From the NCBI RefSeq assembly GCF_053078305.1, contig NZ_CP166879.1: DNA of 64,000 nucleotides. The stretch is one strand, 5' to 3'. A program made the position numbers and the translations under genes. Below, piece after piece: positions 59,032-64,000 of this stretch. Position 1 is the first letter of the stretch. Every line of letters begins with the position of its first letter. The notes below the pieces were generated by a model. The model was given only the letters and a program-made list of their open reading frames with translations. It made no database searches and was not told where the DNA came from.

Positions 59032-60885
59032 ATGAGACGATTTCTGACGACGCTGATGATACTCCTGGTCGTGCTGGTGGCCGGGTTATCTGCGTTAGTG
59101 TTGCTGGTGAATCCGAATGATTTCCGCGACTATATGGTCAAGCAAGTTGCTGCACGTAGCGGTTATCAATTGCAGCTCGACGGGCCACTGCGTTGGCACG
59201 TCTGGCCGCAGCTTAGTATCCTCTCCGGGCGAATGTCTCTCACCGCCCAGGGCGCGAGCCAGCCACTGGTTCGCGCCGACAACATGCGCCTGGACGTGGC
59301 GCTTTTACCACTACTGAGTCATCAACTGAGCGTTAAGCAGGTGATGCTAAAAGGGGCAGTGATCCAACTGACGCCGCAGACGGAAGCGGTGCGCAGTGAA
59401 GACGCTCCGGTTGCACCGCGCGACAATACCTTGCCGGATCTGTCAGACGATCGCGGATGGTCGTTTGATATATCCAGTCTTAAGGTGGCGGACAGCGTTC
59501 TGGTGTTCCAGCATGAAGATGACGAGCAGGTGACAATCCGCAATATCCGCCTGCAAATGGAACAAGATCCCCAACATCGTGGCTCATTTGAGTTTTCCGG
59601 GCGGGTTAATCGCGATCAGCGCGATCTCACGATATCCCTTAACGGTACGGTAGATGCTTCTGATTATCCGCATGATTTAACGGCGGCTATTGAACAAATT
59701 AACTGGCAGTTGCAGGGTGCAGATTTACCAAAACAAGGTATTCAGGGGCAGGGGAGTTTCCAGGCCCAGTGGCAGGAGTCACATAAACGCCTTTCATTTA
59801 ACCAAATTAGTTTGACCGCCAATGATAGTACGCTGAGCGGGCAAGCACAGGTCACGCTGACAGAGAAACCGGAATGGCAGCTGAGACTGCAATTCCCGCA
59901 ACTGAATCTTGACAACCTCATCCCGCTTAATGAAACCGCGAATGGTGAAAACGGTGCCGCGCAGCAGGGGCAGAGCCAATCAACGTTGCCGCGCCCGGTC
60001 ATTTCTTCGCGTATTGATGAACCGGCCTATCAGGGACTGCAAGGCTTTACGGCTGATATTTTGTTGCAGGCCAGTAACGTGCGCTGGCGCGGAATGAATT
60101 TTACAGATGTTGCCACGCAAATGACCAACAAGTCGGGTTTGCTGGAAATTACTCAACTGCAGGGCAAACTTAACGGTGGACAGGTTTCACTGCCGGGCAC
60201 GCTGGACGCGACATCAATAAATCCGCGGATAAACTTCCAGCCACGGCTGGAAAACGTTGAGATTGGTACCATTCTGAAGGCGTTTAACTATCCGATTTCG
60301 TTGACCGGAAAGATGTCACTGGCTGGTGATTTCTCCGGTGCTGACATAGATGCCGACGCATTCCGCCACAACTGGCAAGGACAGGCACATGTCGAAATGA
60401 CCGACACGCGCATGGAAGGGATGAACTTCCAGCAGATGATTCAGCAAGCGGTAGAACGTAATGGTGGTGATGTGAAGGCCGCTGAAAACTTCGATAACGT
60501 AACGCGTCTTGACCGCTTTACCACCGATTTGACGTTGAAGGATGGCGTCGTGACGTTAAACGACATGCAAGGTCAATCGCCTGTGCTGGCGCTGACAGGG
60601 GAAGGCATGTTGAATCTGGCAGATCAAACCTGCGACACCCAGTTTGATATTCGGGTCGTGGGTGGCTGGAACGGGGAAAGCAAACTGATTGATTTCCTCA
60701 AAGAAACGCCAGTACCGCTGCGGGTTTATGGCAACTGGCAGCAACTCAATTACAGTCTGCAAGTGGATCAGTTACTGCGCAAACATCTACAGGACGAAGC
60801 GAAACGTCGCCTGAATGACTGGGCCGAGCGGAATAAAGATTCCCGCAATGGCAAAGATGTGAAGAAGTTGCTGGAGAAGATGTAG
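59032..60885 (+). CDS. asmA: Outer-membrane assembly protein AsmA
   Basis: 617 aa with an N-terminal membrane anchor. Confidence 0.9.
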   Translation: MRRFLTTLMILLVVLVAGLSALVLLVNPNDFRDYMVKQVAARSGYQLQLDGPLRWHVWPQLSILSGRMSLTAQGASQPLVRADNMRLDVALLPLLSHQLSVKQVMLKGAVIQLTPQTEAVRSEDAPVAPRDNTLPDLSDDRGWSFDISSLKVADSVLVFQHEDDEQVTIRNIRLQMEQDPQHRGSFEFSGRVNRDQRDLTISLNGTVDASDYPHDLTAAIEQINWQLQGADLPKQGIQGQGSFQAQWQESHKRLSFNQISLTANDSTLSGQAQVTLTEKPEWQLRLQFPQLNLDNLIPLNETANGENGAAQQGQSQSTLPRPVISSRIDEPAYQGLQGFTADILLQASNVRWRGMNFTDVATQMTNKSGLLEITQLQGKLNGGQVSLPGTLDATSINPRINFQPRLENVEIGTILKAFNYPISLTGKMSLAGDFSGADIDADAFRHNWQGQAHVEMTDTRMEGMNFQQMIQQAVERNGGDVKAAENFDNVTRLDRFTTDLTLKDGVVTLNDMQGQSPVLALTGEGMLNLADQTCDTQFDIRVVGGWNGESKLIDFLKETPVPLRVYGNWQQLNYSLQVDQLLRKHLQDEAKRRLNDWAERNKDSRNGKDVKKLLEKM

Positions 60886-60902
60886 GTTACCAGGTGACCT
60901 GT

Positions 60903-60945
60903 CCTGTAGGCCTGATAAGACGCGTAAAGCGTCGCATCAGGCGTT
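60903..60945. repeat. REP element
   Basis: gcctgataagacgcgtaaagcgtcgcatcaggc palindrome. Confidence 0.55.
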
Positions 60946-61335
60946 CGCGGCGGCACCATTATATTCTGAATATGTAAGATCGAAGGCTGTTCCGTTCACT
61001 TGATGTTCCTCACTACTATGGAACGCTCAAGCCGGTGAACGTGCCAGGGTGGCTCAATCGCCACCACCCTGGCAACCCGGGCTCCCGGCGGTAAATCGCC
61101 GCTGGCGCGGTTCCCTCATCTTATTCCTTTCGGCTATCGGGTATGGGCGCGAGGTAACATCCCTGTAAAACGCGCCCTCAGCCCACATCCATGTGGGCTG
61201 CCCCGGCCTACAGGAAACGATTCGGCGATTTACAGCCGGACCCACCCCCCGCTGTAATGTCCATGTACCACAGACAACGCTTCATTGCTGAAGTTATAAG
61301 GCGTTACGCAGCATCGGGTAAAATGACCGATACCA

Positions 61336-62337
61336 TCACACCTCGTACTCCATCTCGCCATCCTTACGCAGCGGTATAATCTGCACCTTCTGCACGCGAT
61401 GGCTTTCTACCTGCAACGTTTTAAGCAAATAATCCCCCACCTGAACTTCTTCGCCAGGTTTTGGAATACGCTGCAAATATTCCATCAACAGCCCGGCAAT
61501 GGTGTGATATTCACGTTTTTCATCCAGCGGCAGCGGCACATATTGCACCAGATCCTCCAGCGGCATATGACCATTCGCCGTCCAGGAACCGTCCGCATTC
61601 TTCTGAATATCATGGCGGGCGTCGATCTCTTCCACTTCGTTCGGTAAGTTACCGGCAATGGTTTCAGTGACGTCACTTAATGTCACAATCCCTTCCACCG
61701 AGCCAAACTCATCCACCACAAAAGCAAAGTGCGTGCGGGCATTACGGAACTGCTCCAGGGCAGGTAACAACGGCAAGGTTTCCGGGAACACCAGCGGCTG
61801 GCGAATCAACACCCGCAGGTTGAGCGGTTCGCCACGCAGAGACTGTTGTAGCAGGTCGATAACGTGAACAACACCGAGCAAATCTTCTGCGTCATCGCCA
61901 TCAGTAACCACCAGCCGCGTATGCTGATTTCGCTCCAGTAACTGGCGGATCTCGTCTTCCGGCGCGTTGAGATCGATATGCTCAATATCGTGGCGCGACG
62001 TCATAATGCTGCTGACGGTACGCTGGTTAAGATTAAGTACCCGCTCAATCATCCGCCGTTCCTGCGGATTAAAGATCTGCTGGTTACCATGATCCACCAG
62101 CATGGACGCGGTTTCGGCGTCCAGTTCCGCATCTTCTTTTTGCCCGCTAAGCAGGCGCATTACCGCTTCGGTAGTCCGCTGGCGCAGCGTCTGGTTAGCG
62201 GAAAGAAAACGTCGCCGGTTAAAGATAGCCAACTGATTGAGCGCCTCGATCATCACCGAGAAACCAATAGCAGCGTACAGGTAGCCTTTCGGAATGACGA
62301 ATATAGCGCGGCGATTTTTTTGATACCGATTTGCATT
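61336..62337 (-). pseudogene. yegH: yegH-like CBS/CorC-domain membrane protein, 5'-truncated: C-terminal ~330 codons present, N-terminal membrane domain missing
   Basis: The frame continues upstream of the GTG at 62256 (...FVIPKGYLYAAIGFSVMIEALNQ...) but hits a TGA at 62338-62340 and then diverges into AT-rich DNA. As I recall, full-length YegH has an N-terminal TerC-like membrane domain of about 200 aa that is absent here. Confidence 0.6.
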
Positions 62338-62429
62338 TCATTTGATACCGCTGAAAAACGCCGATACGCAACTTATTTGATACTAAATCGGCGCTTTTCT
62401 TTTGAGTTTTAGAATGAGTTTTTAAGCGC

Positions 62430-63167
62430 TCATTCACTCTCTTTCAAACCAGTTTTAACTGTTTGTGGTTTTGGGTAAGGCTGGACTTTGAATAGCTTTG
62501 TGTTGAGGCGTTTTCTGGCCCTCTTGTTCAGAAACCGGATGTAACGAAACTGTCGGAACTTATGCACACTGGCTCTGTCGATATTAGCCCTCAGATGTTC
62601 ACCTCGTTGTCCGCCTCGTTTAATGGCATTCCTGCAAATCTCGTGATACCACTCGCCATCAAGTTCATAGAATGTTGATTCATGGCTGCCTACATAATCA
62701 AAATTGCTTGCCTGATACACGACACCAAGACAGCCACAACGCTCATCTGCAAACGACTGAACCCACTGTACCTGCGGATAAAGATGCCTGATTAGCTTGA
62801 GCGCGTAACTGATTGCCCTTGATTCGGAGTTTCTCGGCATACAGTCATGCATCCATAGCCGGTTAAGCTCCATATATTCTCGGTTCTGCGTACCCGTTAC
62901 GACGCGTGCACCACTGTTTGGGTTAAGGGCGTAACCCCATTGCATTACGCCAACAAGTTCCCGTTCTGAAAATATACCCAGATGAAGGTAGGAATTATTT
63001 ACGAAACGGTGGCTGTAATGTTTATTGACGATAACCAGTCTGGCCAGCCAGCAACTTATTGTCTCAACCCGCAACTCACGGGAGCCATAACCAACGATAT
63101 TGTCGTTATAGCGAATAAGTTCAGGCGTGCTGATGATTCGGGATGTGACTTGCTTTCTGTTCCCCAC
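62430..63167 (-). CDS. Mom-like DNA modification protein (putative adenine-modifying acyltransferase)
   Basis: 245-aa ORF directly downstream of, and overlapping, the com-like gene, as in phage Mu com–mom. Assigned by context; I could not verify Mom sequence similarity. Confidence 0.5.
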
Positions 63168-63321
63168 GACAGGATTTCCTTGTGTATGTGGGGTGCTCTG
63201 TGGCGCTCGGAGATGTGATTTGATTGAGGGTTTTACAGCGCGGACATTTTACTTCCAGATAACTGAAACTGGCCCGTGCCAGTAGCTTATTGCAGTGTCG
63301 GCACCGTATGTTTCGATACAT
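63121..63321 (-). CDS. Com-like zinc-finger translational activator
   Basis: [30 protein letters not shown] closely parallels the Mu Com zinc finger as I recall it (IRCKNCNKLLFKADSFDHIEIRCPRCK). Start taken at the internal Met of an 81-aa track ORF. Confidence 0.7.
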
Positions 63322-63361
63322 GGCCGCATAACCTCCTGCTTTGTTGTTGATGTCTTTCTCA

Positions 63362-63510
63362 TGCAATCGATCGACAAAAACGATCGATTCGATTTGTTTA
63401 ATTGATACAACAAATAGATTGAAAAGTCATCAATAATGATTCAGGGAGGTGATTATTTACTTAAAGAAAACGAAGAGTTAGGTGGTGAAAATGATCATAA
63501 AATGATCATT
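63362..63510. promoter_or_regulatory. GATC-rich region upstream of com/mom (candidate Dam-methylation-dependent promoter control)
   Basis: Four GATC sites within ~140 bp (63369, 63382, 63493, 63504), arranged as palindromes tcgatcga / cgatcg and an inverted pair tgatca-taaaa-tgatca. Confidence 0.5.
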
Positions 63511-63730
63511 TTATTGACTTTTTATACAGTGAAGGTAGGATCGCGCGTATATGTAGTATGTTTCAAATCAATGGGATACTACATACATAAAGGGCGACCC
63601 AGATAGCGCGAACTATTCTGGGCCGATTTAGACAATTTTGCATCAATGCTTTACTTCGAGCTCGTGGCGTATCCTATGATATTCCCCGGTCTCCTGTAAA
63701 GCAGAGATGCATAAAAAGGAGATCTTTATC

Positions 63731-63901
63731 ATGGATAAAGAGCCTGTTTGCCCTGCCTGTAAGACTCCCTTACAGCTCATCTATCGCCGTTCTCGATCTC
63801 AAAATGGCAAGACATACAAACCAAAAAATGCTTCCTGTTTCAGGATGCTGATATGTCCTGCCTGTTCTCCCCGGAGGGAAAATACACAAAACGTGCATTA
63901 A
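63731..63901 (+). CDS. Small zinc-ribbon protein (two CPAC motifs)
   Basis: Strong RBS aaggag 10 nt upstream of the ATG at 63731; translation MDKEPVCPACKTPLQLIYRRSRSQNGKTYKPKNASCFRMLICPACSPRREN. Confidence 0.4.
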   Translation: MDKEPVCPACKTPLQLIYRRSRSQNGKTYKPKNASCFRMLICPACSPRRENTQNVH

Positions 63902-64000
63902 CAAATTCACCCGGCAGGGAAACCTGCCGGTCGGTATTGTTACATCATAGTACCGTCAGTTCCGGGCTGAACCGGCTCTGGTTGCTCTACGGGTTGAGGC

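Follow-up and report, generated by a model that had tools for sequence, protein, structure and literature searches.

A REP element and a diverged, uncatalogued TRIP1/RRS-family repeat in the spacer between asmA and yegH

We analysed the spacer between asmA and yegH in a 64,000-nt stretch of contig NZ_CP166879.1 (RefSeq assembly GCF_053078305.1), hereafter called the window. This 450-bp spacer (60886-61335), bounded by asmA on one side and by the yegH stop codon on the other, contains a repetitive extragenic palindromic (REP) element and, beside it, a repeat of the TRIP1 family, two copies of which are known as replication risk sequences (RRS). The repeat has kept a fold whose stems covary among relatives, has lost the G-quadruplex (G4) tract of the RRS, lies in the orientation opposite to the RRS copy of the same replichore, and is reduced by deletion in many E. 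coli genomes. The spacer consists of a REP and a diverged, uncatalogued TRIP1-family copy, which rather probably acts as a foldback when single-stranded. A first-pass annotation of the region, made from the letters alone, had proposed that it might conceal either a small RNA or another member of a repeat family. The second part of this proposal was borne out by the TRIP1/RRS relationship, while for a small RNA we obtained a sub-threshold Rfam match and no promoter or terminator consensus; the element is a repeat-family member, not a demonstrated small-RNA gene.

Identification of the TRIP1-family repeat

The 450-bp spacer was used as a query against 5426 complete E. coli genomes. It matched 5425 of them, at a median of three places per genome (maximum 10). 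BLAST showed that a core at ~61047-61231 recurs at other E. coli loci with 83-85% identity, the matches to TRIP1a/c extending over ~185 nt; one of these places is the K-12 aqpZ-lysO spacer, the site of TRIP1a (RRS-lysO), which was matched over 177-187 nt, and another is the spacer between proX and a major facilitator superfamily gene (proX-MFS). Full-length alignments were made with TRIP1a, TRIP1c and TRIP1d, as well as with the proX copy and copies from E. albertii, Citrobacter and Klebsiella. In the aligned copies (aqpZ-lysO, proX-MFS), the hairpin loops were identical and the stems differed by paired changes, and the similarity to TRIP1a, TRIP1c and TRIP1d spanned the element and was not confined to the two loops. 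These alignments, together with BLAST, place the whole element at ~60990-61258; its sense strand is the minus strand, on which both the GGA loops and the G-rich tract are found.

TRIP1 was described by Rudd (1999), and TRIP1a is the copy between aqpZ and ybjE (Li et al. 2024, PMC10888264). TRIP1 repeats are 146-273 bp long with 62-65% G+C, adopt a 'double-Y' fold, lie 38-96 bp past stop codons and mediate inversions; five loci are catalogued (aqpZ-ybjE, putP-efeU, dusC-mdtQ, alx-sstT and copA-ybaP), and TRIP1b carries a 125-bp internal deletion (PMC10888264). TRIP1a and TRIP1c are RRS-lysO and RRS-dusC, near-identical copies (Pham 2023, 2024). The window element is homologous to these repeats, measures ~265 bp with 61% G+C, lies between genes, ~80-95 nt 3' of the yegH stop codon and co-directional with yegH, folds back as a 'double-Y', and has internal-deletion variants as TRIP1b does. 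It differs in that asmA-yegH, like proX-MFS, is outside the five catalogued loci, a difference of locus that has no bearing on homology. Because its identity to TRIP1a reaches ~85% over only ~185 nt, the 80%-coverage filter of the published survey would have missed it. Within the family, the window, proX-MFS and Citrobacter torD-yeiP copies formed a distinct subfamily without the G4 tract.

No match to the element was found in the phage collection. In the plasmid collection, the matches were to chromosomes or chromosome fragments filed as plasmids, and they provided no evidence of mobility. One such record, K. pneumoniae CP125156.1 (5.37 Mb, filed as a plasmid), matched the element in at least 12 places, more than E. 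coli.

Anatomy and conservation of the fold

The repeat search, the minimum-free-energy fold and covariation together defined a first Y, Domain I (61085-61239, minus strand). It is closed by a 17-bp stem, P1, of 94% complementarity (61085-61101 with 61223-61239), and continues into an interrupted rod, P2 (61118-61141 with 61202-61221), with a small hairpin at 61099-61110. Two hairpins form its tip. Tip hairpin 1 (61179-61200) has the stem CAGCCCAC/GUGGGCUG and the loop context ACAUGGAUGU at 61185-61194, and tip hairpin 2 (61145-61177) has the stem GGGCGCG.../...CGCGCCC and the loop context ACAGGGAUGU at 61157-61166. A 10-nt direct repeat returned by the repeat search corresponds to these two loops (ACATCCCTGT and ACATCCATGT). 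A further minus-strand hairpin, hp3 (61042-61074), which reads GGGUUGCCAGGGUGGUGG, separates Domain I from the second Y, Domain II (60992-61042, minus strand), which consists of a stem (60993-60999 with 61035-61041) and an inner hairpin (61005-61024).

For the segment 61030-61270, the minus strand gave a folding energy of -119.5 kcal/mol (z -4.1) and the plus strand one of -105.6 kcal/mol (z -3.9), and in both cases none of 200 shuffles was as good. The strong structure noted in the first-pass annotation thus goes far beyond shuffles on both strands. Of the two hairpins named there, the one at 61044-61072, ccagggtgg...ccaccctgg, was located exactly, and the repeat search extended its arms to 11 bp (61042-61052 with 61064-61074); the other, gcccacatccatgtgggc, is present but lies at 61181-61198, 5 nt lower than its given position of 61186-61203, within the full stem at 61179-61200. 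The 17-bp closing stem, the third hairpin at 61145-61177 and the 10-nt direct repeat had gone unnoticed, and it is the closing stem with the hairpins that gives the Y shape.

We then scored pairing on an RNAalifold consensus of 65 pairs from ten copies in three genera: the window, TRIP1a, TRIP1c, TRIP1d, the proX copy, E. albertii, C. freundii (torD-yeiP), two K. pneumoniae copies and K. aerogenes. The Citrobacter and Klebsiella copies (four of the ten) were taken from chromosome pieces filed as plasmids. Standard pairs made up 98.0% of the cells, compared with 89.6% in shuffles, and 28 of the 65 pairs had changed on both sides, compared with 11.3 +/- 2.0 in shuffles (none of 500 reached 28). 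When partners were slid by 1-3 columns as a control, only 2-5 pairs showed two-sided changes. The fold has therefore been maintained.

In tip hairpin 1, five of nine pairs carried compensatory changes (columns 50-71), and the loop UGGA was invariant in all ten copies. In Citrobacter and Klebsiella, tip hairpin 2 is closed by G-C in place of A-U (columns 85/94) with the loop unchanged, and CA-N-GGA-Y-G was invariant in both tip loops (10/10 copies). Compensatory changes were also found in four of eight pairs of Domain II (columns 214-221/257-264), and in hp3 the G-rich arm covaried with its C-rich partner (columns 180-213). The hairpins suggested at first are kept, with compensatory changes, across paralogues and genera, but at this locus the element is partly or wholly lost in most E. 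coli.

As to which strand folds, a six-copy alignment of Domain I comprised 304 Watson-Crick, 3 G-U and 2 A-C cells and was uninformative. In the ten copies, G-U cells numbered 10 and A-C cells 2, a weak lean (an excess of ~8 events) toward folding of the GGA strand. The near-pure Watson-Crick stems of the six-copy alignment are as expected of DNA hairpins, though RNA may form them too.

The alignments bear also on coding capacity. The initial statement that some 450 bp lack a convincing open reading frame (ORF) agrees with our result: the spacer contains only short ORFs, of 39-63 codons. A small protein encoded here, for example by the 63-codon ORF at 61054-61245 on the minus strand, is very hard to credit, as 1-nt and 2-nt indels among the paralogues break these ORFs and the substitutions compensate pairs without any codon pattern.

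Comparison with replication risk sequences

The 222-bp repeats RRS-lysO and RRS-dusC, each ~650 kb from dif, carry the G4 tract GGGGGTGCAGGGGGCGGCGG on the lagging-strand template, block DNA polymerases and, wherever inserted, give rise to RecA/SSB-bound post-replication gaps in the lagging strand (Pham 2023, 2024). The RRS papers further report that at least one copy is conditionally essential, that the RRS shape global supercoiling, and that the complementary strand led to gaps in ~2/3 of encounters in vitro; the activity was ascribed to one G4 tract (Pham et al.). The window copy belongs to the same repeat family, forms the same hairpins and lies in the same terminus (Ter)-proximal region, in K-12 coordinates ~90 kb closer to dif than RRS-dusC.

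The element is defined by its single-strand fold, that is, two Y domains of which the first combines a 17-bp stem with two CA-N-GGA-Y-G-loop hairpins. By analogy with these tested paralogues, once the duplex is opened the element would snap into a very stable structure, and this structure could bring lagging-strand synthesis to a halt, with a post-replication gap as the outcome. The same fold could favour hairpin-mediated deletion at the site as well as recombination among the copies. Any replication effect of the window copy itself is what we infer from this analogy.

Several results weigh against such a role. The RRS G4 motif GGGGGTGCAGGGGGCGGCGG was absent from the window element with up to three mismatches allowed; the site homologous to the tract reads GGGTTGCCAGGGTGGTGG, and the G4Hunter maximum was 1.04 in the window, compared with 1.84 in TRIP1a and 1.76 in Klebsiella. 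The sense strand of the window copy, co-directional with yegH, corresponds to the K-12 top strand at 2.1395 Mb, whereas that of RRS-dusC (2.229 Mb, same replichore) is the bottom strand, which is the lagging-strand template; with opposite sense strands in one replichore, the window copy faces the other way from a working RRS. Here the leading-strand template is the G-rich strand, and the plus strand of the window showed a net positive GC skew, as expected for this orientation. In vivo, an inverted RRS produced no detectable gaps (RRS papers). At least 80% of the spacer was kept in 1424 of the 5426 complete E. coli genomes (~26%). In addition, a pure 'stable hairpin' model leaves unexplained that GGA was retained in both loops across three genera despite the changes in the stems. 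Finally, because the G4-less subfamily (window, proX, Citrobacter) keeps the fold, the selected feature is not the G4.

In all copies, the 5' arm of hp3 is formed by the G-run, which covaries with the C-rich arm opposite, so that hairpin and quadruplex would compete. The K-12-equivalent position of the window copy, 2.1395 Mb, is ~550 kb from dif, which we take to lie at ~1.59 Mb in K-12, and the RRS pair lies at 0.915 and 2.229 Mb. The window copy accordingly stands outside the symmetric pair 650 kb from dif, differs from the RRS (Pham et al. 2023, 2024; Kusi-Appauh et al. 2026) in lacking the G4 tract and in having its G-rich strand on the leading-strand template, and is often deleted, so that it is clearly non-essential. 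Given the missing G4 tract and the orientation opposite to RRS-dusC, we expect this copy to be dispensable and, by the same analysis, it is probably a weak or null gap trigger; the expected dispensability fits the repeated loss of the copy in E. coli lineages.

RRS were recognised only in 2023-2024 as programmed triggers of post-replication gaps. Here, a natural paralogue and a small subfamily have lost the G4 tract and the orientation and keep the hairpin fold, with compensatory changes, together with both GGA loops. The retention of fold and loops in G4-less copies points to these two features as the conserved core of the family.

Alleles and loss across E. coli

We determined approximate allele shares in a flank-to-flank sample of 60 genomes, with direct alignments, and distinguished five alleles. 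The most frequent (48%) was the 273-bp spacer of K-12 type, in which a 177-bp deletion between two copies of the 8-bp direct repeat ATCGGGTA (61136-61143 and 61313-61320, the two endpoints) has removed both GGA hairpins. The intact 451-bp form, that of the window, accounted for 20%. A 292-bp allele (8%) has lost Domain I at the foot of P1, and a 67-bp allele (5%; B2, Nissle-type strains) consists of a complete REP only. In the remaining 18%, the flanks are more than 700 bp apart, and the one O157:H7 locus examined carries a toxin-antitoxin pair. In this strain, NE1127 (locus L131, 4201-4945), a RelE/ParE-family toxin and a helix-turn-helix antitoxin replace the REP and the TRIP1-like repeat.

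The 292-bp allele, the 177-bp deletion of K-12 and the 125-bp deletion of TRIP1b are consistent with hairpin-driven deletion. We rejected the converse reading, in which the window would carry an insertion relative to K-12, as paralogues span the junction and place the deletion inside the repeat. Insertion of a miniature inverted-repeat transposable element with target-site duplication was likewise rejected, as the 67-bp allele shows neither a clean empty site nor a duplication; among the aligned alleles as a whole there was no sign of recent transposition by either token. These natural alleles (the intact form, the form without Domain I, the 177-bp deletion, the spacer with REP alone and the toxin-antitoxin replacement) constitute ready test material.

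The same pattern of loss would also suit an inert relic; the window copy would then be what is left of a formerly mobile or duplicated repeat, with no function at this locus today and with an inherited structure that is decaying. Loss or replacement has arisen independently in at least four alleles (273 bp, 292 bp, the 67-bp REP-only spacer and the toxin-antitoxin cassette), the intact form is found in those 1424 of 5426 genomes, the G4 tract is absent, the orientation is 'wrong' for an RRS, and neither a target-site duplication nor a clean empty site is seen. However, the intact allele pairs nearly perfectly, its loops are unchanged, and its differences from its nearest relatives, the proX and Citrobacter copies, are compensatory and not random. 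We regard a relic as unlikely, though worth keeping in view beside the preferred reading of a foldback that acts when single-stranded.

The annotation of K-12 is also affected. At 2139486-2139758, this genome holds a fourth, partial and uncatalogued TRIP1-like copy, which retains the 3' half of Domain I along with hp3 and Domain II; in this asmA-yegH copy, as in TRIP1b, an internal deletion has taken away the two GGA hairpins. Because of the 177-bp deletion, data from MG1655 are uninformative on gap formation at the intact element.

Probable relation to TwoAYGGAY RNAs and resemblance to the CsrA consensus

The Rfam covariance-model scan, which the first-pass annotation had named as a check, returned sub-threshold matches only. 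TwoAYGGAY (RF01731) aligned over its full model to 61092-61235 on the minus strand with 27.0 bits (E 0.13), and the same model gave 30.6 bits on K-12 TRIP1a, both below its gathering score of 43; the REP-derived naRNA4 matched the REP with 33.1 bits, below its gathering score of 59.5. A match to Afu_514 at a permissive threshold was set aside as chance. TwoAYGGAY RNAs have two AYGGAY loops, often with a very long P1, and Psychromonas members include the loops AGGGAU and AGGGAC (Weinberg et al. 2010). Loop 1 of the window element, AUGGAU, fits AYGGAY, while loop 2 is AGGGAU in E. coli (R, not Y) and ACGGAC in Klebsiella.

We built a covariance model, R1, of TRIP1 Domain I (61084-61241, minus strand) and searched it against loci pre-selected for the two loops. 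On the non-enteric elements among these pre-selected loci, E values ranged from 7e-8 to 1e-3. The Salinicola element scored 41.5 bits (E 7e-8), with the junction strings GCCGGG and CCGACCCGA-AGC also matched; the P. fluorescens element (locus L116, 4651-4743) scored 38.3 bits, and TwoAYGGAY scores 43.0 there, equal to its gathering score. Several Pseudoxanthomonas elements were also matched, and a 68-bit Psychromonas member of TwoAYGGAY was missed at E<=1.

Domain I resembles TwoAYGGAY in a long closing stem with two adjacent hairpins and A-Y/R-GGA-Y loops, modelled on the same strand, as well as in multiple copies per genome, and the P. fluorescens element provides a possible reciprocal covariance-model link. 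It differs in its score (27-31 bits against 43), in its E. coli loop 2 (AGGGAU), and in that TRIP1 has the extra rod P2 and a second domain. From these model matches, we conclude that Domain I appears to be related to TwoAYGGAY and is not a threshold-passing member.

A scan for two ACAKGGATGT motifs 12-40 nt apart, with one genome per species, returned at least 120 loci. Among the matches listed, these were mostly from Gammaproteobacteria, often with several loci per genome, and most had no Rfam match. In the folds drawn, a pair of hairpins sat on a near-perfect closing stem of 20-30 bp, and enclosing pairs numbered 27, compared with a mean of 17 in shuffled flanks, a modest enrichment. In 92 non-enteric elements, the GGA strand folded 4.9 kcal/mol better than its complement (p = 2e-7), perhaps through an effect of the loop parameters, with G-U counts equal (429 vs 382). 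Modules of two ACAKGGAUGU hairpins were multi-copy in Pseudoxanthomonas kaohsiungensis, Shewanella electrodiphila and the Firmicutes metagenome-assembled genome HGW-3. Such two-hairpin modules often share GAGCnUACAkGGAUGUAcUUGCrGCGUGUC. Some are from Xanthomonadales, in which, to our knowledge, no Rsm/Csr sponge RNA has been described.

We tentatively suggest, at odds that do not favour it, that Domain I of TRIP1/RRS is the enterobacterial branch of a far larger gammaproteobacterial superfamily that includes TwoAYGGAY, in which selection would act on the Y-fold and the two invariant A-N-GGA loops and not on the G4. If such a superfamily exists, its elements could be RNAs that bind a CsrA/RsmA dimer, in which case the RRS would gain an RNA-level role and TwoAYGGAY a function; or else the 'TwoAYGGAY RNA' could be a DNA-level programmed-gap element like the RRS, reaching far beyond enterics.

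The loops of the window element bear on the first of these options. The consensus of RsmE/CsrA sites is reportedly A/U-C-A-N-G-G-A-N-G-U/A, selection in vitro (systematic evolution of ligands by exponential enrichment, SELEX) is said to give RUACARGGAUGU, and dual-site binding by CsrA is reported at spacings of 10-63 nt. On the minus strand, ACAUGGAUGU (61194-61185) and ACAGGGAUGU (61166-61157) both lie in loops, with 28 nt from GGA to GGA, which fits CsrA-binding RNAs, where GGA is presented by a hairpin loop in the context A/UCANGGANGU/A and two sites are 10-63 nt apart. One could view Domain I as an RNA element, an enterobacterial relative of TwoAYGGAY whose two predicted high-affinity CsrA sites would be bridged by one dimer. 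It would be transcribed in the GGA sense, through the yegH 3' untranslated region or by read-through from the mom gene of the adjoining prophage, and would either titrate CsrA or make the stability of the neighbouring transporter mRNA depend on it.

Consistent with this possibility, both loops fit the RsmE/CsrA consensus, loop 2 matching 11 of 12 SELEX positions; all ten copies, from three genera, have GGA in both loops although their stems covary; the 28-nt spacing falls inside the 10-63 nt range; TwoAYGGAY aligns on the GGA strand and R1 reaches the P. fluorescens TwoAYGGAY site; G-U cells outnumber A-C cells on the GGA strand (10 vs 2); and four of the six E. coli copies follow closely on a gene (yegH, alx, dusC or proX) and have its direction. 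Nevertheless, the stems are almost purely Watson-Crick (304/3/2 cells), which is unusual for RNA, the G-U excess is weak (~8 vs 2 events), the Rfam score is sub-threshold, and the genes on either side of TRIP1a and of TRIP1b all run antisense to the repeat. The RRS phenotypes reported to date are accounted for at the DNA level. In gene-level tables of K-12 CsrA cross-linking and immunoprecipitation (CLIP), asmA, ybjE, ygaY and dusC are all marked 'No'; as these tables are gene-level and hold no strand-specific intergenic peaks, this is weak negative evidence. A consensus scan of 60700-61600 found no sigma-70-like promoter and, on either strand, no site resembling an intrinsic terminator, which counts against an independent RNA gene.

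Compared with known CsrA/RsmA-binding RNAs (CsrB, CsrC, RsmY/Z and dual-site leaders), the element has the same loop GGA within ACA-N-GGA-U-GU and a spacing that suits one dimer. It has two sites against the 9-22 of the sponge RNAs, its stems are far longer and more perfect, and neither a promoter nor a terminator was found. The RRS and TRIP1 literature that we found does not mention TwoAYGGAY or CsrA. In our analysis, a DNA-level mechanism for the family is the best supported, and the GGA loops keep a reading as an RNA or as a protein-recognition site alive as a minor, rather unlikely alternative. The relation of the repeat to TwoAYGGAY and to the CsrA consensus offers a testable lead for an RNA motif that has been an orphan for 16 years.

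The adjoining REP and the neighbouring genes

The REP mentioned in the first-pass annotation is real, but it lies at 60902-60946, upstream of the interval from 60960 in which it had been placed. It is a single unit, with an inverted repeat at 60910-60923 and 60929-60942, and its right arm is cut short in the window allele. Spacer positions 18-57 (40 nt) are 100% identical at an unrelated locus. The full palindrome, TGTAGGCCTGATAAGACGCG...CGTCGCATCAGGCCTACA, is seen in the 67-bp REP-only allele. This minimal asmA-yegH spacer of one complete REP occurs in E. coli SC455 and the Nissle-derived SYNB1934; in the window, the REP loses its right arm where the TRIP1-like block starts. An 11-nt stretch within the repeat, GGCCTACAGGA (61205-61215), is complementary to the left flank of the REP (60902-60912).

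REP and the TRIP1-like element adjoin directly, and both, like the bacterial interspersed mosaic elements built from REPs, are extragenic palindromic repeats between convergent genes. A REP, however, measures ~35 nt with one hairpin and occurs in hundreds of copies, whereas the TRIP1-like element is ~265 nt long, has multiple helices and occurs in 1-10 copies. The literature gave nothing relevant to the asmA-yegH intergenic region, nor anything on RSA, Box C or ERIC (enterobacterial repetitive intergenic consensus) repeats that is relevant to the spacer.

This arrangement also raises the question of transcript ends. The REP and the foldback might together form a barrier, acting in both directions where the transcripts of asmA and yegH converge, that stops read-through and shields 3' ends from exonucleases, as REP does. 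The position between convergent genes, the lack of a canonical intrinsic terminator on either strand, hairpins that are very stable on both strands, and the location of all TRIP1 copies 38-96 bp past a stop codon would suit such a barrier. On the other hand, a 67-bp REP-only spacer suffices in some strains, TRIP1a sits after the apparent terminator of aqpZ itself, and neither the conservation of the loops nor the elaborate two-domain fold is explained. We regard a transcript-end function as improbable.

The convergent orientation of the neighbours was as first described: asmA (59032-60885, plus strand) faces yegH (minus strand, stop codon at 61336). What had been called yegH, however, is only the 3' part of the gene (61336-62301), which encodes the CBS and CorC_HlyC domains and is interrupted by the end of a Mu-like prophage. 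The gene just upstream of TRIP1d, alx, and the one just upstream of the window copy, yegH, both encode TerC-family membrane proteins, which may be a coincidence. Similarity to intact yegH ends at 62301, and 62302-64000 is the right end of the Mu-like prophage, com included. A Mom-family ORF at 62430-63167 on the minus strand (Pfam PF25680, E 1e-76) places mom in the direction of the TRIP1-like element. Records of Shiga toxin (Stx) phages annotate the same prophage segment as 'inserted Bacteriophage Mu-like phage'.

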